From positions 62,001 through 94,590 of IMG/VR virus record IMGVR_UViG_3300017767_000001: DNA of 32,590 nucleotides, one strand, 5' to 3'. Positions 1,180 through 16,853 of the stretch are shown here, piece by piece (the first letter of the stretch is position 1; each line of letters starts with the position of its first letter). Origin of the DNA: an uncultured virus (IMG/VR IMGVR_UViG_3300017767_000001). Taxonomy: Duplodnaviria > Heunggongvirae > Uroviricota > Caudoviricetes. A model generated the notes under the pieces. The model had not been told where the DNA came from. It saw nothing but the letters and a program-made list of their open reading frames with translations, and searched no databases. Position numbers and translations under genes: made by a program.

Positions 1180-2433
1180 ATGTATGCTAAATTAGTATTC
1201 CCCGGCGACACCAAAACAGGGGAGCAGGTTAGGGACATTGTAAGGCTAATTACAAGCTCTACATCAAGTACTGCAAGCCTTTCAGGACTTGAGTTTATTA
1301 CAACCGCACAATCTACAGTATCAGGCGGAAATAGCGGATGGAGTTTACACTCTAGTTCGCCTTCTATTCCAAGTTCGGGGACCGCTGTAAGTGCAGCAGA
1401 CTCAAACTTTACACTAGAAGCTCCGTGTGTAACGAGTGGAAAGACAAAGTACTGCAGTATTCATGTAAATGGAAGCTGGACTCATGCGGCTGCAACTCAT
1501 ACTGGAGATGACTTTGCATTTACAGTGGCAAGTATTATAGATCCTGGTGCTGCTACCGAATTGATCAGTAATGGCTATAGTGGTACGAGTTCTAGTTATG
1601 GCGAAAACTATGGAATCTGCGGAAATACAGAGCATTCAGATCAAGGAATTCACATCTTTGCAGATAACCGAAGAATTATTATTCATGGAAAAGATGGAAA
1701 AAACCATACTGTAACATTAATTAATGGAGAATTTGCTGAAACCGATACCACAACTCGATATACTCTTGTTCCTCAAGCTCAAATGTGTTTAAGTAGTATG
1801 TATCATATTTCAGATCTAAGAAATGTTAGTTATCGAGGAGATACTTATACTCCTTGGGACGGCTTTAGCTATACAGTTCCTTTTATTAGCTTTTTAGAGT
1901 CAATGTACTCTTATCAAAGTGGTTGGACTGGAAAAATAAGATTTACAGGGTGGCATCAATACAACGATAGAGCTAGCTACGGTGGAAAATGCCGTTATCG
2001 TAGCCGTATTGACGATGGAACTCAATATGGAGATTCAACTTTAGAGTCCTCTAGTGGCTACGGAAGAGCACATATGGGGTATGAAATGCTTGATTGGCCT
2101 CAAATTTATATGTTCGGACCAAATCAATATAACCAAGGATGGAATGATAACTCTAATTATGATAGTAGATTTGGAAGAGCTGCCTCAGGTGCTGTAGAGT
2201 ATGATTCAAGTGGAAATGCAGGACTTGCTTTGTACAAAATGTGGTGGTCATCCCCTTCTTGCTGGAATTCAGATAAACAAGTTTTTTCTGATCTTTGTAA
2301 TATTTGGAGATGTGCAGGCGGTCTAGGATCAGATGGGGATACTGTAACTATTGGTAGCGATACTTATGTTTACTTACAGCAAAATACTGCAACTCCTGAT
2401 ACTCTCGGCGGATTTTTAATTAAAAGGACTTAA
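1180..2433 (+). CDS. Hypothetical protein, probably virion/tail-associated (417 aa)
   Basis: Long ORF with RBS taaggag upstream, located in the tail fibre operon. It is Ser/Gly/Tyr/Trp-rich with no recognisable catalytic motif. Confidence 0.7.
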   Translation: MYAKLVFPGDTKTGEQVRDIVRLITSSTSSTASLSGLEFITTAQSTVSGGNSGWSLHSSSPSIPSSGTAVSAADSNFTLEAPCVTSGKTKYCSIHVNGSWTHAAATHTGDDFAFTVASIIDPGAATELISNGYSGTSSSYGENYGICGNTEHSDQGIHIFADNRRIIIHGKDGKNHTVTLINGEFAETDTTTRYTLVPQAQMCLSSMYHISDLRNVSYRGDTYTPWDGFSYTVPFISFLESMYSYQSGWTGKIRFTGWHQYNDRASYGGKCRYRSRIDDGTQYGDSTLESSSGYGRAHMGYEMLDWPQIYMFGPNQYNQGWNDNSNYDSRFGRAASGAVEYDSSGNAGLALYKMWWSSPSCWNSDKQVFSDLCNIWRCAGGLGSDGDTVTIGSDTYVYLQQNTATPDTLGGFLIKRT

Positions 2434-2435
2434 TT

Positions 2436-2759
2436 ATGGCTGCTTTACAAATTACTTACGGAGGATCTTCATATAATGTCACACGACTAGACGTGCAAGA
2501 TACTACTACGCCCTCTCAGGTTCTTTTACAGGGGGCGCAAAATTTATTTACAAATAATACTGCGCGGCTAGATGTACAAGATACAGTTTCTCCTTCTCCA
2601 ACTTTTGCACAAAATGCACAAAAATTATTTGAAAACAATACTACACGATTAGATATTCAAGAACCTATAAGCCCTAATCGTGTGTTTATTCAAGGAGGGG
2701 TTGCGAGTCCTAATGCACAGACAACAGGGGCTCCAGCATCAAAAGAAAGCTGGGAGTAA
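2436..2759 (+). CDS. Hypothetical protein with three 27-aa tandem repeats (107 aa)
   Basis: Tightly packed (2-nt gaps on each side). Repeats NxxRLD[VI]Q[DE]xxxP occur at 81-nt period. Confidence 0.7.
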   Translation: MAALQITYGGSSYNVTRLDVQDTTTPSQVLLQGAQNLFTNNTARLDVQDTVSPSPTFAQNAQKLFENNTTRLDIQEPISPNRVFIQGGVASPNAQTTGAPASKESWE

Positions 2760-2761
2760 TC

Positions 2762-3010
2762 ATGAACTTGACAAAAACATATACAAATTCTGACGACAAA
2801 ATAACTCATGTAGAGATAACTCTTTCTCACATAGAAGATGAAGTAACAACATCAGTATCGGATATATTTGAATTAAGGGAGCCTTTAGATTCAATTACTG
2901 AGACTGAAGCAATAATGGGTGTGGGAATCTGGTGGGCACAATTACGTGCTTTACAAAAAGCACTACAAACAAAATTAAGTCTTGTATCCCACACGGAGAC
3001 GGTAGTTTAG
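2762..3010 (+). CDS. Hypothetical small protein (82 aa), possible fibre chaperone
   Basis: RBS ggag precedes ATG2762, and the ORF fills the gap between neighbouring genes exactly. Function is inferred from context only. Confidence 0.65.
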   Translation: MNLTKTYTNSDDKITHVEITLSHIEDEVTTSVSDIFELREPLDSITETEAIMGVGIWWAQLRALQKALQTKLSLVSHTETVV

Positions 3011-3019
3011 GAGTAGATA

Positions 3020-5800
3020 ATGGCCTATAATTTTCCAAACAGTCCAAGCAATGGAGATACCGTTACAGTAAACGGTGTTGTCTATACTTATATTTCAGCA
3101 GACAATGCTTGGAAAACGGGCACTGGTTTAAGTCCTGCTATACTTAGCAATGGAACTGTTCCTAGTCTCGGTACTGGTATTACTGCAGCAGAAGTAAGAA
3201 CTCTTATTGGAGCAGGGACTAGTAGTGTAGATATAAGCTCTATTGGCGGAGATATAATTCCAGACGGAAATGAAACTCGAGACTTGGGCTCAAGTACAAA
3301 TAAATTTAAAGATCTACACTTAAGTGGTACAAGTATAAATCTTGGCAACCAAACTATCTCCGCGGATAGTAGTAATATAATTGTAGGTCAATTAAAAATT
3401 GGTAGTGGAAATAATCAAGTAACTCTTAGTGGCGGTACAAATAATACTTTACAGATTGGAAATACTGCCGCCTTTAGTGGCGCATTTAGTGATCTCAGCG
3501 GTAAGCCAACAACTATATCAGGATACGGAATTACAGATGCATTTGATGGAGTTTTTGCTTCTCTTTCTAGCAAACCAACAACTATATCAGGATACGGAAT
3601 TACAGATGCGCTTACTTTAGGAACATCATCTACAACTGCACTTGCAGGTAACACTGCTTTATTTAGTGGTGCATTTAGCGCTCTTACAGGTAAACCTAAT
3701 ACTATTGCAGGATATGGTATTACCGATGCATTTAACGGCGCATTTAGTGCTCTTACAGGTAAACCCACTACTATAGCAGGATATGGTATTACCGATGCCG
3801 CATCTACAAGTGCAGATATTGATATTGGTAGTAATGATTTTATTACAACAGGTAAAGTTTTATTTGCAAATATGTATTCAGCGCTTTCCAATTTACCTAG
3901 CGCTACAACTTATCACGGTATGTTTGCACACGTACATGCTACAGGGGCTGCATACTTTGCACACGGCGGAAACTGGATAGAACTCGCAAACAAAAGTTAT
4001 GTAGATACTCAAGTTTCTGCTCTTGTAGACTCTGCACCTGCAACTTTAAATACTTTGAATGAGCTTGCAGCTGCATTAAATGATGATGCTAGTTTTTCTA
4101 CAACAGTTACAAATAGTTTAGCTGTAAAAGCACCTCTTGCAAGTCCTGCACTTAGTGGTATACCGAGCGCCCCAACAGCATCGAGCGGTACAAATACTAC
4201 TCAAATAGCTACTACTGCATTTGTAACAGCAGCAGTAGCGGGAGCTTCTGGAACATATAATAACGCAGCAGTAGATACTCATTTAAATACAGGCACTGCT
4301 TCTACAAATGAAGTACTCTCTTGGACTGGCAGTGATTATGACTGGGTAGCACAGTCTGGTGGCGGTGGTGGTGCTTCGGTGAGCACTTCTGATGCGGCAC
4401 CAAGTAGTCCGAGTGCAGGAGATCTGTGGTACAATACAAGTGCTGGTGGATTATTTGTGTATTATCAAGATGCAAACTCCTCTCAATGGGTGGAAATTGT
4501 AGGTAAAACAGGTGCTACAGGTGCTACAGGTGCTACAGGTGCTGCGGGGTCTAGTGCTGCAATAACTCGTTATGCTAATGTTGCAGGCTTTCCAGGAAGT
4601 CCTACTGCCGCTGATTTAGCTTATGCAAATGATACAAATACTTTATATTTATATAATGGGTCTGCATGGGAAATAGTAGCCTCTGGAAATGACGAAAGTC
4701 CTGTAATTCTTACAGAACCTCCTACAAGCACTCAAAGTTTGACTGGGGGAGCTACGTCAACAGTAACAATGGTAGCACAAGATCCAGAAGGTTTTGATAT
4801 TCAATATGGTATTGCTTACAAAACTACAGGCAATGCACGGCCTACTCAATTATCAGCAGATACAACTATAAATCAAACTACCGGAGTATTTACTCTCACT
4901 GCTAGTAGTAATTCCTCTCACGCAGGAAGTTTCAAAGCACGATTAAGTGCATCTGATGGAGCAAGAACTACAACTCGTTTTGTTGATTTTGACTTATCTT
5001 TTTATGACTTTACTATATCGCCTGCTGTTAGCGGACAATCAACCTGGACCTTAGCAAGTGGAGCTTTAACTTTAGATACTGCACAAGTTTACACAATTAC
5101 TCCTACTTCAAACATGAATATAAATGCAAAAATGTGGGGAGCTGGCGGATCAACTACAGGTACTAGTGCGGGAGGGGCTGGAGGTTACGCAAGCGGTACG
5201 ATTGCTCTTACTGGAGGTACAAGCTATAAAATTCGAGTCGGGTCCCAAACTGGAGGGGGCACGGGAGGTTCAGGTACCGGTGGCGGCTATTCTGGTATTT
5301 TTGTAACGAGCGAAACTCACGCAAATTCTGTAATTATTGCTGGTGGCGGGGGTGGTGGAATTACTCAATACAGTGTTACTCAACAAGCTGCTGCGGGGGG
5401 AGGTGCTTCTGGTCAAACAGGAGGTGTTAGTGGTTCTGGTGCTGGGGGCGGGGGTACTCAAAGTGCAGGGGGTGCGGGCGCTTCTGAAGGAGCTACTCGG
5501 GGAGGTACCGCAGGTAGTGCTCTTACAGGCGGTGTAGGTAATTCTGCTGGTAGTTATGGCGGAGGCGGTGGTGGCTCCGGTTACTATGGTGGAGGCGGTG
5601 GTGCCTCCCGTATAGGGGGTGACGGAGGAAACAATGGAATGGGCGGTGGTGGCTCTGGTTATATTGGACACTCAAGTGTATCTAACGGAGTGAATACTGC
5701 TGGAAATTTAGGAACCCCAGGAAACAGTTCGGATAGTGCAAGAGGCACTGCAGGTAATCCAGCAGTCGCTGGAAAAGTAGTAATTTCTGCAAGTTCATAG
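3020..5800 (+). CDS. Long tail fibre/adhesin with C-terminal glycine-rich domain (926 aa)
   Basis: RBS aggag. N-motif MAYNFPNSPSNG; four YGITDA repeats; SAPATLNTLNELAAALNDD and NTTQIATTAFV motifs typical of lambda Stf/P2 gpH-like fibres; GDLWY module; Gly-X-Y linker; DPEG-containing Ig/cadherin-like domain; Gly-rich C-terminus starting at MWGAGG. Confidence 0.85.
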   Translation: MAYNFPNSPSNGDTVTVNGVVYTYISADNAWKTGTGLSPAILSNGTVPSLGTGITAAEVRTLIGAGTSSVDISSIGGDIIPDGNETRDLGSSTNKFKDLHLSGTSINLGNQTISADSSNIIVGQLKIGSGNNQVTLSGGTNNTLQIGNTAAFSGAFSDLSGKPTTISGYGITDAFDGVFASLSSKPTTISGYGITDALTLGTSSTTALAGNTALFSGAFSALTGKPNTIAGYGITDAFNGAFSALTGKPTTIAGYGITDAASTSADIDIGSNDFITTGKVLFANMYSALSNLPSATTYHGMFAHVHATGAAYFAHGGNWIELANKSYVDTQVSALVDSAPATLNTLNELAAALNDDASFSTTVTNSLAVKAPLASPALSGIPSAPTASSGTNTTQIATTAFVTAAVAGASGTYNNAAVDTHLNTGTASTNEVLSWTGSDYDWVAQSGGGGGASVSTSDAAPSSPSAGDLWYNTSAGGLFVYYQDANSSQWVEIVGKTGATGATGATGAAGSSAAITRYANVAGFPGSPTAADLAYANDTNTLYLYNGSAWEIVASGNDESPVILTEPPTSTQSLTGGATSTVTMVAQDPEGFDIQYGIAYKTTGNARPTQLSADTTINQTTGVFTLTASSNSSHAGSFKARLSASDGARTTTRFVDFDLSFYDFTISPAVSGQSTWTLASGALTLDTAQVYTITPTSNMNINAKMWGAGGSTTGTSAGGAGGYASGTIALTGGTSYKIRVGSQTGGGTGGSGTGGGYSGIFVTSETHANSVIIAGGGGGGITQYSVTQQAAAGGGASGQTGGVSGSGAGGGGTQSAGGAGASEGATRGGTAGSALTGGVGNSAGSYGGGGGGSGYYGGGGGASRIGGDGGNNGMGGGGSGYIGHSSVSNGVNTAGNLGTPGNSSDSARGTAGNPAVAGKVVISASS
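3473..3799 (+). repeat. Four 69-nt (23-aa) F.G.F..L..KP.TI.GYGITDA repeats in two pairs
   Basis: An identical 35-mer ccaacaactatatcaggatacggaattacagatgc occurs at 3506-3540 and 3575-3609. A second pair lies at about 3662-3799. Confidence 0.9.
4508..4543 (+). repeat. Perfect 9-nt tandem repeat (acaggtgct)x4 encoding a collagen-like Gly-Ala-Thr linker
   Basis: Read directly from the sequence. Confidence 0.9.
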
Positions 5801-5809
5801 GAGTAAACA

Positions 5810-7333
5810 ATGGCAACAGATTTTCCAAATAGCCCCGCAAACGGAGCAACTCATACTTTCGGAGGCACTACATATACTTATGATTCCTCTGTAGGTGCTT
5901 GGACTGCTGGAACTTCTGCGGGCGGAGCATCTGTAACTGTATCAGAAACAGCTCCTTCTAATCCTGCTGAAGGGGATTTGTGGTTTGATCCGAGTGTACT
6001 TAAAACGTTTGTATACTATAACGATGGAACAGCAAATCAATGGGTACAGAATAACCCGACGGGAGGCGGAGGAAGCTCCGGCGGAGGTGCTTCTGTAACA
6101 GCATCTGACACGGCCCCAACTTCTCCAAGTGCAGGAGACCTGTGGTATAAGTCAGATACAAATGCACTGTATGTATACTATAATGATGGAGACTCTAGTC
6201 AATGGGTAGGTGTATCCGGCCCTGCAGGAGCTGCAGGAGCTGCAGGAGCCGCAGGAGCCGCAGGAGCAAATGCGGCACCAGTAAGCTATACGGCACAGGG
6301 GAATCTTCCTAGTTCTGGAAATACTGTAGGCTCTTTTGCTTGGCTTACAAGCACAGATCAACTTGCGGTAGCACAATCTGCACAGCATTGGAGTATATTT
6401 ACCAGAGATGCTACTACGGCTTTTACTGCAACTGGAGGTACAATTACAACTTATACTGGTGATGGTACTAATGGAACAAATGGTACTAGCTATAAAGTGC
6501 ATACTTTTACTTCTTCTGGAAACTTTGTAACAACTGGATCAAAAAGTTATGATTATATTGTAGTCGCAGGTGGAGGATCAGGAGGGCCAAGACACGCTGG
6601 CGGAGGCGGTGCCGGAGGATATATCGCACAAACAGGAGTAACGATTGCGGCAGGAACTCATGCAATTGTGATCGGAGCAGGTGGAGCAGGTATCTCATCA
6701 GGAACAGGAACAAGCGGAAATAATGGTAGTAATACAACTTTTAATAGCCATACCGCGATAGGAGGCGGTGGAGGTGGATACTCTAGTTCTGCAGCAGGTA
6801 GCGGAGGTTCCGGGGGCGGAGGATCTAGTTGGAATGCATATACTGGGGGTGCTGGTACATCAGGACAAGGATATTCAGGTAGAGATGGACATTGGACCTC
6901 TTCTGGAGACCACAGAATTTCTGGTGGGGGAGGAGGTGCTGGAAGTCAAGGGCCCGTACCTACACAGAGCCCTCAGCAAGCGGGAGATGGTGGTGTAGGA
7001 GTACAAAACTATATAAATGGAACAGGCCATTACTGGGCTGGTGGAGGTGGTGGTGGTACGTGGAATTCTGGGGGAAGTCGAGGAGGAAATGGTGGTAACG
7101 GTGGAGGCGGCGGTGGAACCCATACGGGTACCGGTACTTTAACTGGAGGAACTGGCGGCTCTGGTTTAAATGCTGGAGGCGCTGGAGGAACAGGAACGAC
7201 TAACCTGCCAGGAGCAGGCGGGCAAAATACCGGAGGTGGCTCAGGCGGCGCAGGGCAAGACGTTCATGCAAGCCATGTTGGTGGTTCTCAAAGCGGAGGC
7301 TCTGGCATTGTAATTATAAGGTATGAGGCATAA
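5810..7333 (+). CDS. Glycine-rich adhesin/minor tail protein (507 aa)
   Basis: RBS aggag. N-motif MATDFPNSPANG; two GDLW modules; GPAGAAGAAG linker; Gly-rich domain from VHTFTSSG..YIVVAGGG to GGSGIVIIRY. Confidence 0.85.
   Translation: MATDFPNSPANGATHTFGGTTYTYDSSVGAWTAGTSAGGASVTVSETAPSNPAEGDLWFDPSVLKTFVYYNDGTANQWVQNNPTGGGGSSGGGASVTASDTAPTSPSAGDLWYKSDTNALYVYYNDGDSSQWVGVSGPAGAAGAAGAAGAAGANAAPVSYTAQGNLPSSGNTVGSFAWLTSTDQLAVAQSAQHWSIFTRDATTAFTATGGTITTYTGDGTNGTNGTSYKVHTFTSSGNFVTTGSKSYDYIVVAGGGSGGPRHAGGGGAGGYIAQTGVTIAAGTHAIVIGAGGAGISSGTGTSGNNGSNTTFNSHTAIGGGGGGYSSSAAGSGGSGGGGSSWNAYTGGAGTSGQGYSGRDGHWTSSGDHRISGGGGGAGSQGPVPTQSPQQAGDGGVGVQNYINGTGHYWAGGGGGGTWNSGGSRGGNGGNGGGGGGTHTGTGTLTGGTGGSGLNAGGAGGTGTTNLPGAGGQNTGGGSGGAGQDVHASHVGGSQSGGSGIVIIRYEA
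6224..6268 (+). repeat. 9-nt tandem repeat (gcaggagcN)x5 encoding a Gly-Ala-Ala linker
   Basis: Read directly from the sequence. Confidence 0.85.
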
Positions 7334-7335
7334 AA

Positions 7336-7647
7336 ATGGCACATTACGCAAAAGTAAAAAATGGAATAGTAGAAAATGTAATTGTAGCAGAAGCAGAGTT
7401 TTTTGAAACTTTTGTTGATGATTCTCCAGGTGAGTGGATTCAAACATCCTATAATACACAGGGAGGAGTACATTATGACCCTACAACTGGAGAGCCTAGC
7501 GAAGACCAAAGCAAGGCTCTTCGAAAAAATTACGCGACCCCGGGCGGAAACTACAACGAAGAGGCGGATGCGTTTTATCATCCCCAGCCCGGAGCAGACT
7601 GGACACTGAATACTACTACGTATTTGTGGGAAGCACCAGAGGAGTAA
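7336..7647 (+). CDS. Conserved phage protein (MAHYAK...WIQTSYNT...LRKNYA...WEAP type), likely partner of Gly-rich tail proteins
   Basis: RBS gagg. The motifs WIQTSYN, LRKNYA, DAF..PQP and LWEAP match my recollection of a hypothetical family found beside Gly-rich phage tail genes; function unproven. Confidence 0.8.
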   Translation: MAHYAKVKNGIVENVIVAEAEFFETFVDDSPGEWIQTSYNTQGGVHYDPTTGEPSEDQSKALRKNYATPGGNYNEEADAFYHPQPGADWTLNTTTYLWEAPEE

Positions 7648-7650
7648 AGA

Positions 7651-8940
7651 ATGGCAATTAATTTTCCAAATAGTCCATCAAACGGGGCAACTCATACAGC
7701 AGCAGGCCAGACATTTACATATGATGGTACTGTATGGAATCCTCAAGAAGGTACTCCTGTATCTACCGGCACAAGTGCACCTTCTAGTCCCTCTCCTGGC
7801 GATCTTTGGTTTGATACGGCCTCTGGTACTTTATATTTTTATTATGCTGATGGCTCCTCGAACCAATGGGTTGGTGTAAGCGGTCCTGCTGGAGCCGCTG
7901 GGGCCGCTGGAGCAACAGGAGCCGCTGGAGCAAATGCGGTCCCTGTAACTTACGCTGGAGTAGCAAATCTTCCAACTTCTGGAAATACAATTGGCAGTTT
8001 TGCATATATTACAGGCACAGACCAACTTGCGGTAGCAAAATCAACAAACCACTGGGTTCTTTTTAGTAAGGATAGTTCAACGGATCTACCCACAGTTACG
8101 GGAGGAGGGGCTTTAGGCACTTTCACAGCTGGAGGTACAACTTATAACTATGCAAAGTTTACTTCCGACGGAACATTTGTAGTTACTGGAACTATGACTG
8201 CAGATATAATGATCGTTGCAGGAGGGGGTGGAGGTGCTGGTACTGGTGGAAATGGCGGAGGTGGAGGAGGTGCTGGTGGCCTTGTATATGCTTCAAGTCA
8301 GTCTTTTAGTGCAGGAACATATAATGCAGTAATAGGGGCGGGAGGAGCTTTAGGACAAAATGGATCAAACTCTACATTTACAGGCCAAACTGCCGCAGTA
8401 GGCGGGGGCGCTGGAGGAGCATTTCAATCGGCAGGAGCTGCTGGAGGCTCTGGAGGGGGTAGCGGGCGAGATGGAGGTACCCCAACTCCAGCAGCAGGAA
8501 CCGCAAATCAAGGTTATGCGGGGGGTGCCGGAGGCGGAACTTCTTGTGCTTCGGCTGGAGGCGGCGGCGGAGCCGGAGGGGTCGGAGCTAACGGAGGAAC
8601 TGACTGTGGGTCCTATACTAGTGGAATGTCTGATGGGGGCGTAGGTGCTTCTACGTACTCTGATTGGCTTGAAGGAGCTTCTGCTGGTGAAGAAGTCGGA
8701 GGCACTCGGTATATTGCAGGTGGCGGAGGCGGTGCTATGGAAACAGGTTTTGTTGCAGGAAGAGGTGTAGGCGGTCATGGGGGCGGGGGCGATGGAGCTC
8801 ACAGTATGAGTACATATGCTGACGGTACGGCAGGAGCAGCAAATACCGGAGGCGGGGGTGGCGGAGGCCAACTTCGAAGTGGTACACAACGTGCAGCAGG
8901 CGCAGGAGGCTCCGGTCTAATATTATTGAGGTGGACGTAA
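7651..8940 (+). CDS. Glycine-rich adhesin/minor tail protein (429 aa)
   Basis: RBS aggag. N-motif MAINFPNSPSNG; GDLWFD module; Gly-X-Y linker; Gly-rich domain from IMIVAGGGGG to GGSGLILLRW. Confidence 0.85.
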   Translation: MAINFPNSPSNGATHTAAGQTFTYDGTVWNPQEGTPVSTGTSAPSSPSPGDLWFDTASGTLYFYYADGSSNQWVGVSGPAGAAGAAGATGAAGANAVPVTYAGVANLPTSGNTIGSFAYITGTDQLAVAKSTNHWVLFSKDSSTDLPTVTGGGALGTFTAGGTTYNYAKFTSDGTFVVTGTMTADIMIVAGGGGGAGTGGNGGGGGGAGGLVYASSQSFSAGTYNAVIGAGGALGQNGSNSTFTGQTAAVGGGAGGAFQSAGAAGGSGGGSGRDGGTPTPAAGTANQGYAGGAGGGTSCASAGGGGGAGGVGANGGTDCGSYTSGMSDGGVGASTYSDWLEGASAGEEVGGTRYIAGGGGGAMETGFVAGRGVGGHGGGGDGAHSMSTYADGTAGAANTGGGGGGGQLRSGTQRAAGAGGSGLILLRWT

Positions 8941-11445
8941 ATGACAGCATTAAATTTTCCAGATAGTCCGAGCAATGGTGATACGTACCAGGGCTATACG
9001 TACAATAGTACAAAAGGCACTTGGGCGAAACCAGATTCTCCGGATCCTGATGCAAGAACTGCAGTATACGCAAACATTGCAGCATTGCCTACAAGTGGCA
9101 CTGCTGGTGATATGGCGTATGTAACTGCCACAAATCGTTTATATATTTGGACAGGCACTGGATGGTACAATATTGCATTAATTAATACAAATCCTACTAT
9201 TTCCGGAGTCAGTTCAAGTTATGCTCTTGAAATTGATGGTTCAGCAACTACAGTAACGATTACAGCTACAGATCCAGAAGGAATACCAATTACTTACAGT
9301 ATTGCATCAGATACTTCCGGAAATATTGCTACGGTAGCACAAGGTACCGGTGGAAATACAAATGTATTTACAATTACTCCTTCAACAAATACTGCACACG
9401 CAGGAACTTTTTCGCTTACTTTCCGAGCTTCCGATGGTGTAAATATTGCTTCTGCAGCAGCTAGCTTTACACTACAATTTAAAGTACAAAATTCTAAATA
9501 TACAACTGCCTTGATTACTTCAGTGGGTGCAAATAATGCTGTAAATTCTTCGTTTGATGATAAATCCACTTCGGATCATACAATCACAGCAAATGGAGAT
9601 GCTCATCAAACTACATTTAGTCCTTATCGACATGGAGGATACTCTGTATATTGTGACGGAAATGACGCTGTAAAATTCAATGAAACTGGTGCAGATGAGT
9701 TTACGTTCGGCACTGGAGATTTTACTATGGAAGGCTGGTTTTGGATTGATCTTGCTTCTATTGCAGCCAGCGGAGAGCATACATTAATTGGTAACAATGG
9801 TACAGATGGTGAAATGTGGTTTAGTGTCATTGGTTCCACATGGGGCGGTCCAAAGTACAATCTACAAACAGGTACAGGAAGCGGCTGGGCTAATACGATA
9901 TCCTCAGGAGCAAATACAGTTAAACTTAAACAGTGGGTACATTTAGCGGTTGTCAGAATTAGCGGTACTGTTAATATATATGAGAATGGCGTCTCTGTTG
10001 CAAATGGAAGTAACACAGTAAATATTCCAAACTCTAATAATATGCTTTCATTTATGGGACGGCCACAAACATACGGCCAATATGCAACAGGATATATTCA
10101 TGATGTTCGTATAACTAAAGGCACAGGGGTATATACTTCAGGTTTTACTCCTCCCACGGAAAAAATGGAAGCAGTTACTAATACTAAGTTACTTGCACTT
10201 CGTAAACCTTATATTGTTGATGAATCCGCTAGTCCTCTATCTGTAACAGTAGATACAGGCGATCCGAGTACAAAACCCTTTGCTCCATACGACTATTCAT
10301 CGTATGCAGCAGAAAATGGTGGTTCAATAGCTTGTGATGGCTCTGGTGATAGTATACAAATTACTGGAGGCTCTGACTTTACATTTACAGGTGATTTTAC
10401 TGCAGAGTGCTGGGTTTATTGCAATGCACATACAAATGATTATGCTGGAATTTTCGGTTTTTCTCATGACAGCCAAAGTACAGGATGGAATATTCTTGGC
10501 AGGTCAAACGGTAAACTACATTTTAATGTAGGAATGACTTATACGGATGCAACTGGATCTTTGCCTTTAAATCAATGGGTTCATTTAGCACTAGTTAGAA
10601 ATGGAAGCAGCTCAGGAAACTGTAAATTATATATAAATGGTGTAGCAGATGCGACAACAGTTACAAAAACAGGAACTGTAACTCAGCCAACATTTATACA
10701 AATTGGACAGTACCCTGGAATTGCCGCACGAGCATTTAATGGAAATATAGCAGATGTTCGTGTAGTAAATGGTACTGCAGTTTATACTTCTAATTTTACT
10801 CCTACTACTGCGCCTCTTACAGCAATTACAAATACAAAACTACTTGTACAGAGTACAGATGCAGGTATCATTGATAAGGCTCAAACTCCCCGATTTGTTA
10901 AACTTTTAGGAAATACAAAGTCGTCTACAACTCAAACAAAGTTTCTTTCAAGCTCTATGTACTTTGATGGTACTGGAGATTATATCGAGGCAGACGACCA
11001 AGATATAGGAAATTTTGGTAGTGGAGATTTTACAGCAGAAGGATGGTTCTATCTTACAGCATCTCCTTCAAATTATATTACTATCGCAGAAACACGAGGT
11101 AGCGGAGGATCGACAACTGGCTGGGTTATGGCAATAAGTGCAGGAGACTTTTATGTTTATTCCGGAGCATTTATCGGAGCAAAAGGAAGTGCTATTTCTT
11201 CAAATACATGGTATCACTGGGCTTTTACAAGAAGCGGCACAGATCAAAAAGTATTTTTAAATGGAACTCAAACAGGAAGCACCTATACAACGGCCAGAAA
11301 CTACACAGATAATAATTTTACAATAGGAGCTAAACACGATGCATCTGAATTTTTTACAGGCTACCAGAGCGATGTTCGTATAACCAAAGATTTAGCAAGA
11401 TACACAGCGAATTTTACGCCACCAACGGCAGCTTTAGAGGGATAA
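8941..11445 (+). CDS. Tail-associated adhesin with three LamG/concanavalin A-like domains (834 aa)
   Basis: N-motif MTALNFPDSPSNG; DPEG Ig-like domain; three copies of the LamG-like pattern F..GDFT.E.W ... W.H.A..R ... DVR. Confidence 0.85.
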   Translation: MTALNFPDSPSNGDTYQGYTYNSTKGTWAKPDSPDPDARTAVYANIAALPTSGTAGDMAYVTATNRLYIWTGTGWYNIALINTNPTISGVSSSYALEIDGSATTVTITATDPEGIPITYSIASDTSGNIATVAQGTGGNTNVFTITPSTNTAHAGTFSLTFRASDGVNIASAAASFTLQFKVQNSKYTTALITSVGANNAVNSSFDDKSTSDHTITANGDAHQTTFSPYRHGGYSVYCDGNDAVKFNETGADEFTFGTGDFTMEGWFWIDLASIAASGEHTLIGNNGTDGEMWFSVIGSTWGGPKYNLQTGTGSGWANTISSGANTVKLKQWVHLAVVRISGTVNIYENGVSVANGSNTVNIPNSNNMLSFMGRPQTYGQYATGYIHDVRITKGTGVYTSGFTPPTEKMEAVTNTKLLALRKPYIVDESASPLSVTVDTGDPSTKPFAPYDYSSYAAENGGSIACDGSGDSIQITGGSDFTFTGDFTAECWVYCNAHTNDYAGIFGFSHDSQSTGWNILGRSNGKLHFNVGMTYTDATGSLPLNQWVHLALVRNGSSSGNCKLYINGVADATTVTKTGTVTQPTFIQIGQYPGIAARAFNGNIADVRVVNGTAVYTSNFTPTTAPLTAITNTKLLVQSTDAGIIDKAQTPRFVKLLGNTKSSTTQTKFLSSSMYFDGTGDYIEADDQDIGNFGSGDFTAEGWFYLTASPSNYITIAETRGSGGSTTGWVMAISAGDFYVYSGAFIGAKGSAISSNTWYHWAFTRSGTDQKVFLNGTQTGSTYTTARNYTDNNFTIGAKHDASEFFTGYQSDVRITKDLARYTANFTPPTAALEG

Positions 11446-11449
11446 TACA

Positions 11450-12886
11450 ATGGCAGCAGTAAATTTACCAGATAATCCAGCCAACGGCACTACACAAACT
11501 GTTGGTGGAATTACTTATACTTATAATTCGAGTAAGGGCTACTGGACAGCAGCCGCAAGTTCCGGCGGAGGCGGGGGAGGCGGCGCTTCGGTGAGCACTT
11601 CTGATGCTGCCCCAGGTTCTCCAAGTGATGGCGATCTTTGGTACGATACTGATGATGGCGGTATGTTTGTATACTATCAAGATACTGATTCTAGTCAATG
11701 GGTTGAAGTAATTGGCTCTGCTGGAGCCACTGGAGCCGCAGGAGCCGCAGGAGCTGCTGCTACTGGATATGGACAAGTTCCGATTGTTTATACCGAGCCT
11801 TCTACTACGCACAGTTTAAATAAGGATGGCAGTACTAGTACAGTACAGATGCAGGCAGTTGATCCTGAAGGAACTGCAATTACATATGGAATTGCGTATG
11901 CAAATGCTACAAATGCGCGACCAAATCAACTTGCAACAGATACAACTATTAATCAAAGTACTGGTACTTTTACTTTTGACCCCTCTACAAATAGTTCTCA
12001 TGCAGGTACTTTTAAAGCACGTTTAAGTGCTTCAGATGGAATTACACACGCTACTCGTTTTGTAGATTTTAGTTTAGCTTTTACCGTAGATGTAGACTAC
12101 TTGGTTATTGCTGGCGGTGGTGGGGGTGCTGCCGGTTCGGCAGGTGGTGGTGGTGGAGGTGCTGGTGGTTATCGTACTGGTACTGGCCTTTCTTTAACAC
12201 CTGGCACAACTTACTCTATTACTGTAGGTGCAGGGGGTACAGGTAATCCAACATCTGATGGTATTAGTGCCTCTTCAACAGACGGGGCCAACTCTGTATT
12301 TTCTACCATAACAGCAACTGGTGGAGGAGGGGGTCAAGGTGGACACGCTTCATCTCCTTGGGCGGGCCCTGGACGAGATGGTGGATCAGGTGGTGGCGGT
12401 CGTTACGGGGGTGCTGGAGGAGCAGGTACTTCTGGTCAAGGTAATGATGGTGGAGCATCCACCTCGGCCGGTAGTAGAGGTGGTGGTGGAGGCGGTGGTG
12501 CTGGAGGTGCGGGCGCAGATGGTACATCAGGCGCTGGAGGTGCTGGGGGTGCTGGTTTGGCTTCTTCGATAACAGGTTCTTCTGTAGTACGAGCTAGTGG
12601 AGGAGCAGGCGGTAATACTGGTTCAAATACTGTTGCTGCTACTACTGGAGGCGGGGGAGCTGGGGGCACTTCTGCAAATTCAACGGCAGGTACCGCAAAT
12701 ACTGGCGGCGGTGGCGGTGGTAATGGTAGTAGCGCGGGCGCAAAAGACGGTGGCTCGGGCGTAGTAATTATCGCAGCGCAGGAGGCAGCAGCAACTGTAG
12801 CAGGAACTTATACTGTAGACACTAGCGGCAGATCCGGATGGCATGTTTATACATTTACAGCAGGCACCGGTAGTATAACTTTTTAA
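11450..12886 (+). CDS. Glycine-rich adhesin/minor tail protein (478 aa)
   Basis: N-motif MAAVNLPDNPANG; GDLWYD module; Gly-X-Y linker; DPEG Ig-like domain; Gly-rich domain from YLVIAGGGGG to VYTFTAGTGSITF. Confidence 0.85.
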   Translation: MAAVNLPDNPANGTTQTVGGITYTYNSSKGYWTAAASSGGGGGGGASVSTSDAAPGSPSDGDLWYDTDDGGMFVYYQDTDSSQWVEVIGSAGATGAAGAAGAAATGYGQVPIVYTEPSTTHSLNKDGSTSTVQMQAVDPEGTAITYGIAYANATNARPNQLATDTTINQSTGTFTFDPSTNSSHAGTFKARLSASDGITHATRFVDFSLAFTVDVDYLVIAGGGGGAAGSAGGGGGGAGGYRTGTGLSLTPGTTYSITVGAGGTGNPTSDGISASSTDGANSVFSTITATGGGGGQGGHASSPWAGPGRDGGSGGGGRYGGAGGAGTSGQGNDGGASTSAGSRGGGGGGGAGGAGADGTSGAGGAGGAGLASSITGSSVVRASGGAGGNTGSNTVAATTGGGGAGGTSANSTAGTANTGGGGGGNGSSAGAKDGGSGVVIIAAQEAAATVAGTYTVDTSGRSGWHVYTFTAGTGSITF

Positions 12887-12896
12887 GGAGTAAAGA

Positions 12897-14282
12897 ATGG
12901 CAACTAACTTTCCAAATAGTCCATCGAATGGAGCCACACATACATTTGGCGGAACTACGTACACTTATAATTCTTCAAAAGCTGTGTGGAAGGCGAGTGC
13001 TGATGCTGTTGCTGTAGGAGATAATCCTCCCTCAAATCCGGAAACAGGTGCATTATGGTTCGATTCAAGCGTAGCAAAAACGTATATTTACTACAATGAT
13101 GGCTCTTCTGCACAGTGGGTACAGCTAAATCCTTCTGGTGGATCAGATGGTGCAGACGCGACAGGTGACGGTGAAAGTCCAATAATTTATACAGAACCAC
13201 CTACGAGTCATTCTTTAAATAAGGATGGCAGCACTAGCACAGTACAAATGCAGGCAGTAGATCCTGAAGGTACTGCAATTACTTATGGTATTGCTTATGC
13301 AAACTCTACAAATACTCGACCCACGCAGCTTGCAGCAGATACAACTATTAATCAAAGTACTGGTACTTTTACTTTTGATCCTTCTACAACCTCGAGTCAT
13401 GCAGGGTCTTTTAAAGCAAGATTAAGTGCCTCTGATGGCATACAGACTTCTACTCGTTTTGTGGACTTTAATCTTAGCTTTAATCCTGATATTACATACT
13501 TAGTTGTAGCTGGCGGAGGTGGCGGAGGTACACAGTCTGGTGGTGGTGGAGGTGCTGGAGGACTTCTTACCGGAAGTAGTACTCTTGCTATAGGAACAAC
13601 ATACACAGTTACAGTTGGAGCCGGAGGAAATGGCTCTGCAACAGGTCCTGGAGCTGCTTCAGATGGAGCAAATAGTGTAATATCTGGTAGTGGATTTACT
13701 ACTCTTACAGCGATTGGAGGAGGTAAAGGAGGAATATATAATGGCGGTGCAGGAGGCACTGGAGGTTCTGGTGGTGGAGGTGCTGTAAATAACGGTGCTG
13801 GCGGATCAGCTACCTCTGGCCAAGGAAATGCAGGCGCAGCCGCTGGAGCAGATAATAGTAGTGCTACTGACTTCGGTGGTGGCGGTGGTGGTGCTGGCGA
13901 AGCTGGAAACACTGATGGGCCAGGACATGGTGGTGATGGTATAGAGTCAAGCATAACAGGAACAGCTACTTACTATGCTGGTGGCGGTGCCGGTGCTCAC
14001 CATCCTGCAAGTCAGTCTCCTGCTAGCGGAGGCCAAGGTGGTGGTGGTGCTGGAGTGAACTCATCCACGAATGGTGGTAACGGCTACCCCGGTACGGCAA
14101 ATACTGGCGGCGGTGGAGGCGCGGGCTCAGAGCACAATAATACTGGAGGTGCAGGGGGCTCTGGAGTTGTTATTATCAGAACTACTTCAACGGCCGCATC
14201 AACTACTGGATCCCCGACTCTAACTACTGACGGATCTTTTAATGTATACAAGTTTACTGCAAGCGGTAGCATAACTTTCTAA
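12897..14282 (+). CDS. Glycine-rich adhesin/minor tail protein (461 aa)
   Basis: RBS aggag. N-motif MATNFPNSPSNG; GALWFD module; DPEG Ig-like domain nearly identical to that of 11450-12886; Gly-rich domain ending VYKFTASGSITF. Confidence 0.85.
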   Translation: MATNFPNSPSNGATHTFGGTTYTYNSSKAVWKASADAVAVGDNPPSNPETGALWFDSSVAKTYIYYNDGSSAQWVQLNPSGGSDGADATGDGESPIIYTEPPTSHSLNKDGSTSTVQMQAVDPEGTAITYGIAYANSTNTRPTQLAADTTINQSTGTFTFDPSTTSSHAGSFKARLSASDGIQTSTRFVDFNLSFNPDITYLVVAGGGGGGTQSGGGGGAGGLLTGSSTLAIGTTYTVTVGAGGNGSATGPGAASDGANSVISGSGFTTLTAIGGGKGGIYNGGAGGTGGSGGGGAVNNGAGGSATSGQGNAGAAAGADNSSATDFGGGGGGAGEAGNTDGPGHGGDGIESSITGTATYYAGGGAGAHHPASQSPASGGQGGGGAGVNSSTNGGNGYPGTANTGGGGGAGSEHNNTGGAGGSGVVIIRTTSTAASTTGSPTLTTDGSFNVYKFTASGSITF

Positions 14283-14292
14283 GGAGTAAAGA

Positions 14293-16824
14293 ATGGCAAT
14301 TAATTTTACAGACAGTCCATCAAATGGAGCTACGCAAACAATCAGTGGGCGTACGTATACATACAATAGTGCAAAAAATAAGTGGGATACTACTGCTACA
14401 GAGGTAGCAGGCCCAACTGCAACTGTATATGCAAATGTTGCTGCCCTGCCTACTTCTGGAAATATTACTGGCAACCAGGCTTTTGTAAGTGCTACAAATC
14501 GGTTATACATATGGAATGGTACTGGTTGGTATAATATTGCACTTATTAATACAAATCCAACTATTAGTGGTGTAGCTTCGAGTTATGCTTTAGCAATTGA
14601 TGGTACTGCTACGACTGTAACGATTACAGCTTCTGACCCCGAAGGCATACCAATTACTTACAGTATTGCTTCGGATACTTCTGGAAATTCTGCAACAGTA
14701 GCTCAAGGAACGGGTTCAAATACAAACGTATTTACGATTACTCCTTCTACAAATACAGCTCACGCAGGAACTTTCAGTCTTACTTTCCGTGCAAGTGATG
14801 GTGTAAATCTGGCAACTGCTGTATCTTCCTTTACATTACAGTTTAAGGTTCAGAATCAAAAGTATACTACAGCACTCATTACTTCAGTAGGGGCAAACAA
14901 TGCTGTTAACACTTCTTTTGACGATAAGTCTACAAACGACCATACAATTACTGTAGCAGGAGACGCACATCAAACTACATTTAGTCCTTATCGACATGGA
15001 GGATATTCAACTTATTTTGATGGCACAACAGATTATTTAAAAGTAACAGACTCAGCCGAACATGACTTTGGAACAGGTGATTTCAGTATGGAATTTTTCT
15101 GGTGGCCTGAAACGGTAACTGGAAATAGTGGAAACATACATATAATGATTTCTGCTCCAAATAATAGTCATAATCAGTTTATCTACCATGAGTCCAACTA
15201 TTGGTATTATCAAAGTGGAGGTGGGGGCGCTACAGTAATACCAAGTTCTACAGGGGCCGCCACTGCTAAGACATGGAATCATGTGGTTCTTTGTAGATCT
15301 GGAACTACAATGAGTATATTTAGTAATGGTAGTCGAACTGCAACAGTGCAGTCAAGTGCAGCAGTTGATTTTTCTCATGCAACTATTGGTCGATATGATA
15401 GTGGAGGCTATGAAGTAGACGGATATATTCGAGATATGAGATGGTTAAAAGGAAGCTCTGCCTACGATGCTACACAAACATCTATAACAGTTCCGACCGA
15501 GCCTCTTACAGCAGTAACAAACACTACTTTCCTTGCTTGTCACTTACCTTATATTGCTGATGGTTCTACTACAGGCCATAGTATAGCTGTAAATGGCAAT
15601 ACTAAAACACTACCATTTGCACCTTATGACGAACAAGAGTACTCTGCCAGTAGTCATGGAGGTTCTGCGCATTTTGATGGTACTGGTGATTATTTAAGTA
15701 TTGCGGATCACGCAGATTTAGATATGGGTAGTTCGGATTTTACAATAGAAGGTTGGTATTATCCAGTTGTAACTCCGGGCGGAATGAATGGATTACTTTC
15801 AAAACGAGCAAATAGTAGTGAAGCAAACGGAATTTTAATATATTTTGGAGGCACTAGCACGGGCGAACCCTCCCTTTTAGTTGCACAGTCTGGTTCTTGG
15901 GCAATCAACACAGCTTCAAGTATAACTTTTAAAACTGGCCAGTGGAATCATTTTGCAATTGTAAGAAATGGAACTAGTTTTAAACTTTACATTAATGGAA
16001 AAGCAGGAGTATCAGTTACTAGTTCTATTACTGTAACTGATAATGGACATGCATTTATAATAGGAGCAATGGGAGCTGACGGTAGTAATCCCTTAGCAGA
16101 ATCTAATATATGTGATTTTCGTGTAGTAAAAGGAACAGCACTTTATACTGCGGATTTTACTCCTCCAACTGCTCCTCTTACAGCAGTTACAAACACAAAA
16201 CTACTTGTACAAAGTACAGACGCAGGCATCATTGATAAGGCTCAAGTTGCTCAACAAATAAAGTTAGTAGGAGATGTAAAATCCTCTACTACTCAAAATA
16301 AGTTTTTAACATCTTCAATAAAATTTGATGACAATGGTGATTATATTATTGTAAAACCTGGTCGAGAGTGGGCTTTTGGAACGGGCGATTTTACAGTAGA
16401 ATATTGGATTTATTATAATGCGATAGGAAGCTATGATTATGTATATGATGGCAGAAATAGTAGTCAAACTACAGGCGCTTGGAGTGTAGCTCATGGTTAC
16501 GGGGGAGGAAATGCCACAATACTTCAGTGGGCAAGTGGAGGTAGCGTAATTCTTACTGCTGCGAGTAATCCATCTACAAGTCAATGGGTCCATGTTGCAT
16601 TCTGCAGAAGTGGCTCAACCTTAAAACTATTCTATGATGGGACTGAAAATCAAAGTGCTACAGATAATACAAACTACTCTACAAATCTTACTCATTCTTA
16701 CTTTGGATGTAGACACAGTATCGAACATTATTTAAATGCATACCTAAGCGATTTTCGTGTAACAAAAGGTTTAGCTAGATACACTTCAAACTTCACTGCG
16801 CCGACAGCAGCTTTACAAGGGTAA
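14293..16824 (+). CDS. Tail-associated adhesin with three LamG/concanavalin A-like domains (843 aa), paralogue of 8941-11445
   Basis: RBS aggag. N-motif MAINFTDSPSNG; same Ig-like domain and linkers as 8941-11445; three LamG-like repeats. Confidence 0.85.
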   Translation: MAINFTDSPSNGATQTISGRTYTYNSAKNKWDTTATEVAGPTATVYANVAALPTSGNITGNQAFVSATNRLYIWNGTGWYNIALINTNPTISGVASSYALAIDGTATTVTITASDPEGIPITYSIASDTSGNSATVAQGTGSNTNVFTITPSTNTAHAGTFSLTFRASDGVNLATAVSSFTLQFKVQNQKYTTALITSVGANNAVNTSFDDKSTNDHTITVAGDAHQTTFSPYRHGGYSTYFDGTTDYLKVTDSAEHDFGTGDFSMEFFWWPETVTGNSGNIHIMISAPNNSHNQFIYHESNYWYYQSGGGGATVIPSSTGAATAKTWNHVVLCRSGTTMSIFSNGSRTATVQSSAAVDFSHATIGRYDSGGYEVDGYIRDMRWLKGSSAYDATQTSITVPTEPLTAVTNTTFLACHLPYIADGSTTGHSIAVNGNTKTLPFAPYDEQEYSASSHGGSAHFDGTGDYLSIADHADLDMGSSDFTIEGWYYPVVTPGGMNGLLSKRANSSEANGILIYFGGTSTGEPSLLVAQSGSWAINTASSITFKTGQWNHFAIVRNGTSFKLYINGKAGVSVTSSITVTDNGHAFIIGAMGADGSNPLAESNICDFRVVKGTALYTADFTPPTAPLTAVTNTKLLVQSTDAGIIDKAQVAQQIKLVGDVKSSTTQNKFLTSSIKFDDNGDYIIVKPGREWAFGTGDFTVEYWIYYNAIGSYDYVYDGRNSSQTTGAWSVAHGYGGGNATILQWASGGSVILTAASNPSTSQWVHVAFCRSGSTLKLFYDGTENQSATDNTNYSTNLTHSYFGCRHSIEHYLNAYLSDFRVTKGLARYTSNFTAPTAALQG

Positions 16825-16825
16825 T

Positions 16826-16853
16826 AAAAAAGGGGCTTAGAGCCCCTTTATTT
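16826..16853. terminator. Probable bidirectional intrinsic terminator between the convergent arms
   Basis: aaaaaaggggct-tag-agcccctttattt: a GC-rich hairpin with a T6 tract on the - strand and tttattt on the + strand. It overlaps the stop codon at 16837-16839. Confidence 0.8.

Follow-up and report, generated by a model that had tools for sequence, protein, structure and literature searches.

A short N-terminal tag shared by seven tail fibre proteins of an uncultured siphovirus, best read as a handle for attachment to the virion

Seven tagged fibre genes and their heads

The window analysed here is the final 32.6 kb (32,590 nucleotides) of a 94.6 kb contig from an uncultured marine virus of the Caudoviricetes (IMG/VR record IMGVR_UViG_3300017767_000001; 94,590 bases, 40% G+C, genome completeness of 97% according to CheckV). 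It carries an array of seven open reading frames (ORFs) on the same strand (3020-16824), called below fibre genes 1 to 7 and starting at 3020, 5810, 7651, 8941, 11450, 12897 and 14293. As an initial annotation of this DNA had pointed out, the seven products open alike, with the sequence M-A-x-N-F-P-x-S-P-x-N-G-x-T...YTY...W, referred to here as the tag. All seven ORFs are present at these starts and open with the residues quoted for them. The [YF]TY segment claimed for each is YTY in six proteins and FTY in one, and the W follows. When the first 35 residues are aligned, positions A2, P9, N11, G12, T14, T23, Y24 and W31 are invariant and identity averages 66% over the columns. The whole 94,590-base genome was searched with a profile of these tags, which recognised exactly the seven known places, with E-values from 1.6e-22 to 4.1e-16. 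The sole further match was weak (E 0.04) and lies inside an ORF of 417 amino acids (aa), near its C-terminus. The tag is therefore shared by the seven ORFs far beyond chance. The DNA coding for it, including a shared ribosome-binding site, is 65-77% identical between genes. Where two tags carry the same residue, 188 of the 384 codon pairs differ in codon, showing that selection acted on the peptide rather than on DNA or RNA and that recent gene conversion is not the cause of the likeness.

All seven proteins match tail-fibre or virion-structural PHROGs. The Gly_rich_2 family (PF21722) was found above the Pfam cut-off in genes 2, 3, 5 and 6 (41.9-77 bits, as compared to a cut-off of 24.3), and Laminin_G_3 (PF13385) in genes 4 and 7 (173.7 and 141.1 bits, three stretches each). 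The head of the gene 1 product gave only matches below cut-off, to Gly_rich_2 (E 0.13, 12.7 bits) and to ALK_LTK_GRD (E 0.25), each over about the whole profile. Of the five glycine-rich and two triple-LamG heads counted in the initial annotation, the LamG pair is thus borne out, while the glycine-rich set consists of four certain members and a probable one, gene 1. An hhalign match of the gene 1 head to Gly_rich_2 (E 2.3e-8) was discounted because the profile included the gene 1 protein itself. Pairwise BLASTP also failed to support this kinship (E 24).

An AlphaFold2 monomer model of the 461-aa product of gene 6 had a mean predicted local distance difference test (pLDDT) score of 84.8. It comprises the tag, a second small beta module, a domain resembling immunoglobulin (Ig) or cadherin domains and the head. 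The head (residues 194-448) matched the Bxb1 tail tip (9d93_Qa; Z 13.4, root-mean-square deviation (rmsd) 3.5, 168 residues aligned, 32% identity) and the fibre of cyanophage Pam3 (7ypx_A; Z 12.9, rmsd 2.7, 164 residues aligned, 30% identity). Both matches stand well above the next ones, which are to Ig domains. This fold comparison was computed for one, the 461-aa protein, of the four Gly_rich_2 proteins. In the Pam3 fibre, docking to the baseplate is by the N-terminal domain, while host recognition falls to the glycine-rich domain and the domain resembling tumour necrosis factor (TNF) (PMC9608196). The seven proteins are thus tail (side) fibres with distal C-terminal receptor-binding heads, in agreement with the adhesin nature first proposed for them. 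As the C-terminal heads are distal, the N-termini should face the virion.

The glycine-rich heads differ in the placement of a strand motif. In genes 5 and 6 (11450-12886 and 12897-14282), Y.FT..G.ITF stands at the C-terminal end, and in genes 2 and 3 (5810-7333 and 7651-8940) a like motif, Y..FTS.G.F, opens the domain. The difference suggests a circular permutation.

Spread, subtypes and predicted structure of the tag

To see how far the tag extends, a 35-position profile was run against 1.84 billion cluster representatives. It found 1972 clusters (at 50% identity) at E ≤0.001, and 190 at E ≤1e-10. Among the best 150 of these 1972 clusters, the tag stands at residues 1-4 in 146. The remaining cases are one at residue 14, probably due to a mis-called start, and three giant proteins (P0088, P0115 and P0122). 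A pattern search in IMG/VR gave 269 matches, 250 of which were confirmed, and 61 loci were kept. When related viral loci were scanned in six frames (overlapping loci on one contig not being merged), 151 of 152 matches of at least 20 bits started at a methionine, with a median of one open codon upstream. Up to seven copies were found per contig and up to ten per whole genome, in siphoviruses and myoviruses alike. Among whole records, there are eight copies in a 100%-complete 101-kb relative (G001; seven fibres and a gpM-like protein), ten in the T4-like cyanophage S-N03, three in S-CRM01, two in Vibrio phage D181 and one in S-CREM2. A tblastn search with the tag also reached P-SSM2 and many Synechococcus myoviruses, and Synechococcus phage S-H34 is a further cultured carrier. 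Contrary to the pattern that the initial annotation had held to speak against docking, the tag is, going by the best 150 clusters and the copies per genome, neither mainly internal nor mainly single. A search of cellular genomes, with one genome per species from 185,579 bacterial and archaeal species, gave 26 pattern matches, none of which could be confirmed, though the pattern was strict and divergent copies could escape it.

Many heads follow the tag. In 92 representatives of at least 200 aa, we found Laminin_G_3 in 19, Gly_rich_2 in seven, Peptidase_S74 in four and other families in ten, while 52 had none at E 1e-5. The other families are CBM_4_9, F5/8 type C, SBBP, FG-GAP, He_PIG, Ig/cadherin, propeller and Cyclophil_like2. 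Very small tagged proteins, of 81-112 aa, also occur. Overall, the scan and the counts of copies and heads that had been proposed at the outset show that the tag system is general in marine phages and not peculiar to one phage.

In P0115 (3352 aa), the motif P..GDT..V.G..YTYDG..W is repeated about 20 times; P0122 (1801 aa) has a similar long array, and both arrays adjoin beta-helix-like repeats. The tag-type unit can thus stack head to tail. One viral protein (locus L017, 244-558) opens with two tandem tag units.

For each of the seven tags, another genome holds one that is 0.88-1.00 identical, as compared to 0.36-0.79 for the best paralogue. The order of these subtypes is the same in the related loci L011, L009 and L007/L008. 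Behind them, heads have been exchanged. The NLP subtype opens a 478-aa protein with a glycine-rich head here, but LamG proteins (915-941 aa) in three relatives. Similarly, the 'QTFTYDGT' subtype carries a glycine-rich head here and an 883-aa LamG head in L006. Kept subtypes with differing heads are as predicted by a fixed handle with exchangeable cargo. The initial annotation had supposed equivalent sites on the virion, which would give mixed-adhesin virions, and the kept order speaks against such equivalence as much as for it. With seven distinct subtypes in a kept order, the handles may be non-equivalent, and tags specific to given slots would fit at least as well.

An AlphaFold2 monomer model of residues 1-105, made with 95 sequences, had a pLDDT of 78.6, with 77-89 in the tag part. 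The tag appears as about 33 residues without a helix: an irregular conserved segment (1-13) followed by strands 14-17, 20-25 and 30-33. Behind it lies a second module of like layout (strands 53-56, 61-67 and 72-77). According to this model, the tag would be a small autonomous domain, in which an NFPxSPxNG loop sits on a three-stranded beta-meander (..T.T / ..YTY / ..W). The boundary of the tag is sharp in the alignment. Mean pairwise identity is 59% within it and 28% over the next 60 residues (4371 pairs, 94 of 95 sequences). In pairs whose tags are at least 80% identical (n = 103), 30% are unrelated downstream. The 12 residues past the tag Trp consist to 69% of G, S, A, T or P, as compared to 52% further on, and gene 5 has poly-Gly there. 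At least eight kinds of sequence were found behind the tag, among them an internal module, a second hairpin module, collagen repeats and an Ig domain.

The internal module, PxxPxxGDLW...YVYY...QW, has seven copies in the window. Its profile aligned with that of the tag in register (PxxPxxG, Y.Y, W) using hhalign, with an E-value of 0.0011 and a probability of only 20%. On this alignment, the tag looks like a relative of a shaft bead, specialised for the N-terminal position. The best fold matches of the internal module were weak ones to collagen XV/XVIII trimerisation domains (Z 4.2, rmsd 2.5 over 47 residues, and Z 3.8); in the fold search with the 105-residue model, Z <5 is within noise. For the tag itself, the first 45 residues had no Pfam match even at E 10. 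No meaningful match among PDB sequences came from the profiles of the tag and of the internal module or from the 461-aa protein. When the 105-residue model was the query, Foldseek found no PDB entry at E ≤0.001, the best being CBA120 TSP3 (E 0.27, 45 columns), and VIA-align found no Z ≥5 among 48,161 chains. A homotrimer prediction with three copies of residues 1-40 scored 0.00 (mark 0.42), which is uninformative either way.

Proposed attachment to the virion and competing explanations

Judged by its genes, the phage is a siphovirus combining a lambda-type tail tip with a T5-type replication module. On the 5' side of the fibre region lie genes for terminase, portal, a protease-capsid fusion, tail tube and tape measure. 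They are followed by the tip genes, which are of lambda type and ordered M-L-K-I-J, with a J of 2512 aa. Between J and the primary fibre come a 2OG-Fe(II) oxygenase and then large proteins of 961, 682 and 618 aa. Onward, the order is the 965-aa primary fibre (Mtd_N-type N-terminus), proteins of 417, 107 and 82 aa, and the seven-gene array. On the 3' side of the array, the convergent T5-type module encodes RNR, SbcCD, SSB, helicases, PolA, primase and a D5-like regulator. The PolA is 44% identical to those of T5-like Aeromonas, Vibrio and Klebsiella phages. No match, and hence no near relative, was found when the replication half was compared by megablast with 50,697 phage records. A T5-like placement therefore holds for the replication genes but not for the tail tip, which is lambda-like.

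A link between the tag and the virion comes from S-CREM2. The sole tagged protein of this phage, ORF127 (94606-94944), is encoded between the short tail fibre and other genes of the baseplate region. It was detected in the proteome of CsCl-purified virions, with one unique peptide (PMC10665884, Table 3). Another link is a fusion. In G001, a gpM-like protein (phrog_14, E 2.5e-20; locus L067, 10322-10849, minus strand) consists of the tag, a Gly-rich linker and the gpM core. Its gene sits after the gene in tape-measure position and before the homologues of L, K, I and J. The same fusion occurs in 17 viral loci (L071-L087), with 62-100% identity over the full length, and a more distant one in L065. 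The gpM-like protein of the window genome (genome positions 41569-42060) has a different N-terminal extension of about 59 residues and no tag.

Docking and branching of receptor-binding proteins (RBPs) in Klebsiella phages KP32, K11 and KP34 were reportedly described by Latka in 2019. That short N-terminal docking tags exist, as stated in the initial annotation, is an established principle, with the KP32 RBP2 peptide (PMC13352976) and the collar of the Ur-lambda side fibre Stf (PMC12617516) as examples. RBP2 of KP32 without its first 29 residues is not incorporated; the peptide is dispensable for folding and brings a foreign head into the virion (PMC13352976). The RBP2-RBP1 pairs of KP32, K11 and KP34 likewise place a short peptide at the extreme N-terminus of an RBP. 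The likeness is one of design and not of sequence. KP32-type phages are podoviruses with two RBPs, whereas 7-10 tagged proteins occur here. Moreover, the KP32 peptide is received by the gp10-like branching domain of RBP1, whereas none was recognised here in the PHROG/Pfam scans of the tail and fibre proteins, which could miss remote homologues. Unlike the peptide, the tag is modelled as a mini-domain with a fold of its own, followed by a flexible linker.

The parallel to Ur-lambda lies in the tail architecture. In Ur-lambda, gpM is the six-fold distal tail protein, and twelve N-terminal Stf domains form a collar at the gpV/gpM junction. These domains belong to four trimeric fibres, have linkers of about 10 residues and touch the N-terminus of gpM (PMC12617516). 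Like the present phage, Ur-lambda has a lambda-type tip (M-L-K-I-J) and an N-terminal fibre domain on a flexible linker. The collar clasps the junction of the tube and gpM, and a sister clade of the present phage carries the tag on gpM itself. However, the Stf domain has 94 residues, with a six-stranded sheet and a helix, as compared to about 30 residues, three strands and no helix in the tag model. Lambda also has one fibre type in four copies, as compared to seven types in the present phage.

Taken together, the presence of ORF127 in virions, the gpM fusion and the parallels with Ur-lambda and KP32 make a tail-tip attachment handle the best reading. We hold with moderate confidence that the tag is a shared handle for attachment to the virion. 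The virion-proximal part of the fibre would consist of these first 30 or so residues, joined to the shaft through a flexible linker rich in Gly, Ser and Ala. Such a handle would fix many different fibres to the tail tip, the likeliest site being the ring formed by the gpM-like distal tail protein, or a place beside it. Shafts and heads would be swapped by recombination immediately past the handle, which would provide a large and renewable set of adhesins. Binding of the tag to a virion part, the identity of this part and the number of fibres per particle are what we infer. The universal docking tag of the initial annotation thus stands as a separate, strictly N-terminal module before many heads, but no partner was found for it. 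Nothing places the proteins on the capsid, which had been considered as a possible site.

Several observations weigh against this attachment role. The evidence from virions amounts to a single peptide, and comes from another phage. As gpM forms a ring rather than a fibre, the fusion allows several interpretations. The searches yielded no binding partner for the tag. When the genes upstream of arrays were clustered (up to four genes, 57 loci), the only large cluster was one of generic fibre proteins and no universal family emerged; the genes just 5' of the arrays differ between lineages. Neither a collar protein nor a T4 gp10-like branching domain was seen in PHROG/Pfam scans of the tail and fibre proteins, from which remote homologues of such a domain could escape. 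In addition, the weak kinship with the internal module has to be considered: this module stands before collagen-like repeats and may do no more than trimerise, so that a trimerisation role of the tag is conceivable. P0088, P0115 and P0122, which are among the best 150 clusters, carry the tag-type unit as internal tandem repeats. Finally, the model of the tag is that of a monomer and resembles no solved fold above noise.

Some of these points favour the main alternative, in which the tag is an N-terminal trimerisation or folding nucleus, that is, a specialised copy of the internal hairpin that sets the register of three chains and has no shared partner. Tag and internal module align in register and share their predicted topology. 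Collagen-like Gly-X-Y runs follow immediately on the internal module, which also has the weak fold matches to collagen XV/XVIII trimerisation domains, and tandem internal copies occur in P0115 and P0122. There may also be a likeness to the foldon of T4 fibritin. However, nothing obliges an ordinary trimerisation unit to sit at residue 1, as the tag does in 146 of the 150 best listed clusters and in 151 of the 152 six-frame matches. A flexible and often poly-Gly linker would not transmit chain register. The tag is also found on gpM, which forms a hexameric ring (17 loci), and on proteins of 81-112 aa; the collagen-domain matches remain at noise level (Z <5). We therefore regard a pure trimerisation role as unlikely. 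A distinct view of the tag as a small unit binding surfaces or glycans, like the hairpin repeats that bind cell walls, would give weak host adhesion wherever the unit is placed, including the distal tail protein. It would account for the aromatic-rich hairpin pattern and the long tandem arrays in giant proteins. Choline-binding repeat proteins are among the weak Foldseek matches (probability 0.08), and the gpM fusion resembles decorated ('evolved Dit') distal tail proteins. Nevertheless, all these structural matches are at noise level, the strict N-terminal position would be left unexplained, and a single unit of 30 residues at the proximal end of a fibre is poorly placed to reach the cell. 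Glycan binding thus seems improbable to us.

Two further explanations concern partners other than a site on the virion. The T4 gp36-gp37 and DT57C LtfA-LtfB pairs are known fibre joints, and the tight packing of the genes in one operon would suit a head-to-tail or branched chain, in which each N-terminal cap binds the C-terminus of the preceding gene's protein to build one jointed fibre. Yet the 108 distinct C-termini encoded directly 5' of tagged genes belong to unrelated classes (LamG, Gly-rich, ends of small proteins and others) and share no common plug. The upstream proteins mostly end in complete distal heads (Gly-rich tip, LamG), and in several loci the tagged gene follows small non-structural genes. 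Such a chain is, in our view, quite unlikely, only a little less so than glycan binding. The tag might otherwise be a signal for a shared assembly chaperone, such as the 103-aa or the 82-aa protein encoded at the locus. One small chaperone-like gene for seven fibres would suit this idea, and homologues of the 103-aa protein stand beside tagged genes in 15 of 61 loci. However, the protein is absent from the other 46, and in S-CREM2 the tagged protein itself (ORF127) is in virions. Known fibre chaperones, Pam3 gp25 and Mu Tfa, act on distal C-terminal parts (PMC9608196). A chaperone signal is, in our estimate, the least probable of these explanations.

Other multi-fibre systems help to place the attachment handle. 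T5 and DT57C carry L-shaped fibres, with a p132 or LtfC collar and an LtfA-LtfB branch. These side fibres are attached close to the tail tip, and each attachment point holds more than one fibre protein. The present phage shares the T5-like replication module but has seven fibre genes, as compared to one or two in T5-like phages. Homologues of p132 or LtfC were not seen in the PHROG/Pfam scans of tail and fibre proteins. Pfam detected Peptidase_S74, the C-terminal chaperone of T5 pb1, in none of the seven proteins and in 4 of the 92 family representatives. T5 and DT57C employ separate collar proteins (PMC12617516). In CBA120 (TSP1-4) of the Ackermannviridae and in G7C, several RBPs are reported to be held by conserved N-termini, with heads that recombine (PMC11414711). 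These anchors are multi-domain, with 150-300 residues and defined pairwise contacts, whereas one unit of about 30 residues per protein is found here. Pam3 gp24 (7YPX) and the Bxb1 tail tip (9D93) share the fold of the 461-aa head at about 30% identity, in what is proposed to be the receptor-binding tip. Pam3 gp24, however, docks by an N-terminal alpha-helical bundle and not by a tag.

Short N-terminal docking elements and virions with multiple RBPs are thus already known, while the tag itself has no Pfam family, no solved structure and no description that we found. Searches with motif strings and words, outside of which lay subscription journals and bioRxiv supplements, retrieved no published description of it. 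Large paralogous sets of 'tail fibres' in cyanophage genomes were noted in 2005 (PMC1079782); the tag motif is not in the passages concerned. If the tag is a docking element, it would explain these sets and would lend itself naturally to fibre engineering as a plug, a use that the KP32 peptide has already found. Ocean phages owe their host range to fibres, whose annotation is next to impossible. The handle marks the starts of fibre genes and thereby allows RBPs to be counted and delimited directly in metagenomes; it gives a defined recombination boundary for head swapping and suggests, in a form open to testing, how many adhesins may fit on one small tail tip. A bolder extension, which we consider possible but doubtful, is a pan-marine 'fibre handle code'. 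In such a code, one N-terminal mini-domain would hang up to ten fibres on the tail tips of siphoviruses and myoviruses, its subtypes (NFP, NLP, NFT, short and others) in fixed gene order would encode slots, and the copy carried by the distal tail protein would mark the docking ring or seed its formation. The sequence would then reveal which adhesins an uncultured phage carries and how its virion is built, and heads could be swapped freely behind a known handle.

Neighbouring genes and other features

The features of the region are collected in Table 1. The primary fibre shares shaft modules with fibre gene 1 (repeat D16, 81% nucleotide identity to 3805-3990). In related loci reaching far enough, the 417-aa protein is conserved in three, the 82-aa protein in two and the 107-aa protein in one. 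These three proteins are candidate adaptors or assembly factors. A search of the ESM Atlas with the 417-aa protein returned unnamed viral clusters only.

Table 1. Genes and other features in and around the fibre array (window positions).
Feature	Position	Strand	Tag and family matches	Other contents
Primary fibre, C-terminal 388 of 965 aa	2..1168	+	Mtd_N-type N-terminus (PF18454, E 3.8e-14), no tag	
Three untagged genes between primary fibre and array	1180..3010	+	No family match (Pfam/PHROG scans)	
417-aa gene	1180..2433	+	Weak tag-like hairpin near C-terminus (E 0.04)	
107-aa gene	2436..2759	+		Three internal repeats of ~27 aa
82-aa gene	2762..3010	+	No family match	
Fibre gene 1, 926 aa	3020..5800	+	Tag residues 1-31 = 3020-3112, profile E 5.8e-21; tail-fibre PHROGs	Long shaft of repeated fibre modules, Ig/cadherin-like domain, probable glycine-rich head
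Fibre gene 2, 507 aa	5810..7333	+	Tag 5810-5902; PF21722 E 1.5e-10	Two copies of internal PxxPxxGDLW module, collagen-like stretch, Gly_rich_2 head
Small untagged 103-aa gene within array	7336..7647	+	phrog_7759, function unknown	
Fibre gene 3, 429 aa	7651..8940	+	Tag 7651-7737 (FTY variant); Gly_rich_2 E 2.7e-11	Internal module, collagen-like stretch, Gly_rich_2 head
Fibre gene 4, 834 aa	8941..11445	+	Short tag variant 8941-9024, profile E 4.1e-16; PF13385 E 3.6e-51	Second hairpin module, Ig-like domain, three Laminin_G_3 domains
Fibre gene 5, 478 aa	11450..12886	+	Tag 11450-11545 (NLP variant); Gly_rich_2 E 2.9e-21	Poly-Gly linker, internal module, Ig-like domain, Gly_rich_2 head
Fibre gene 6, 461 aa	12897..14282	+	Tag 12897-12989; Gly_rich_2 E 2.7e-18	Internal module, Ig/cadherin-like domain (~90-195), TNF-like plus glycine-rich head (~194-448)
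Fibre gene 7, 843 aa	14293..16824	+	Tag 14293-14385 (NFT variant); Laminin_G_3 E 3.9e-41	Second hairpin module, Ig-like domain, three Laminin_G_3 domains
GC-rich hairpin, T-runs on both strands	16829..16849	.		9 pairs, 5 of them G-C; 5 bases past gene 7; probable two-way terminator

The repeats of the 107-aa protein are in tandem, with the pattern T-R-L-D-V/I-Q..P-S....Q.AQ.LF.NN, and make up most of the protein, for which no family match was obtained. With three similar sites, it might serve as an adaptor, though it is kept in only one related locus. The 103-aa protein encoded within the array had no Pfam match even at E 10. Its homologues in the 15 loci mentioned above were encoded directly before a tagged gene in 8 distinct cases checked. 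The Trp-rich C-terminus of this protein recalls tail-fibre assembly proteins, and it is possibly a fibre assembly factor or chaperone. The hairpin that follows gene 7 would separate the fibre operon from the convergent replication genes.

G+C content rises to 0.46-0.51 over window positions 4000-9000 and 11000-14000, as compared to 0.39 elsewhere, with a strong positive GC skew in the same regions. Since these peaks coincide with the glycine-rich heads, they reflect a codon-composition effect of GGN runs rather than foreign DNA. A promoter scan found 35 sites as compared to 37.7 expected, that is, no signal.

Two genes of the tail module upstream of the window drew attention. The 2OG-Fe(II) oxygenase gene (genome positions 52273-52842, or 16273-16842 of locus L004; phrog_61, E 1.2e-35) lies within this module. 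The fibres have collagen-like Gly-X-Y runs and invariant prolines; hydroxylation of their prolines would be pure speculation. In the 682-aa protein (genome positions 56361-58409), the first ~85 and the last ~30 residues are common to proteins of about 148 aa in L016, L047 and L054, which precede the main fibre gene in these other marine phage loci. The shared parts make up a small conserved domain, into which a long segment is inserted in the 682-aa protein, and a role as a fibre adaptor is possible.

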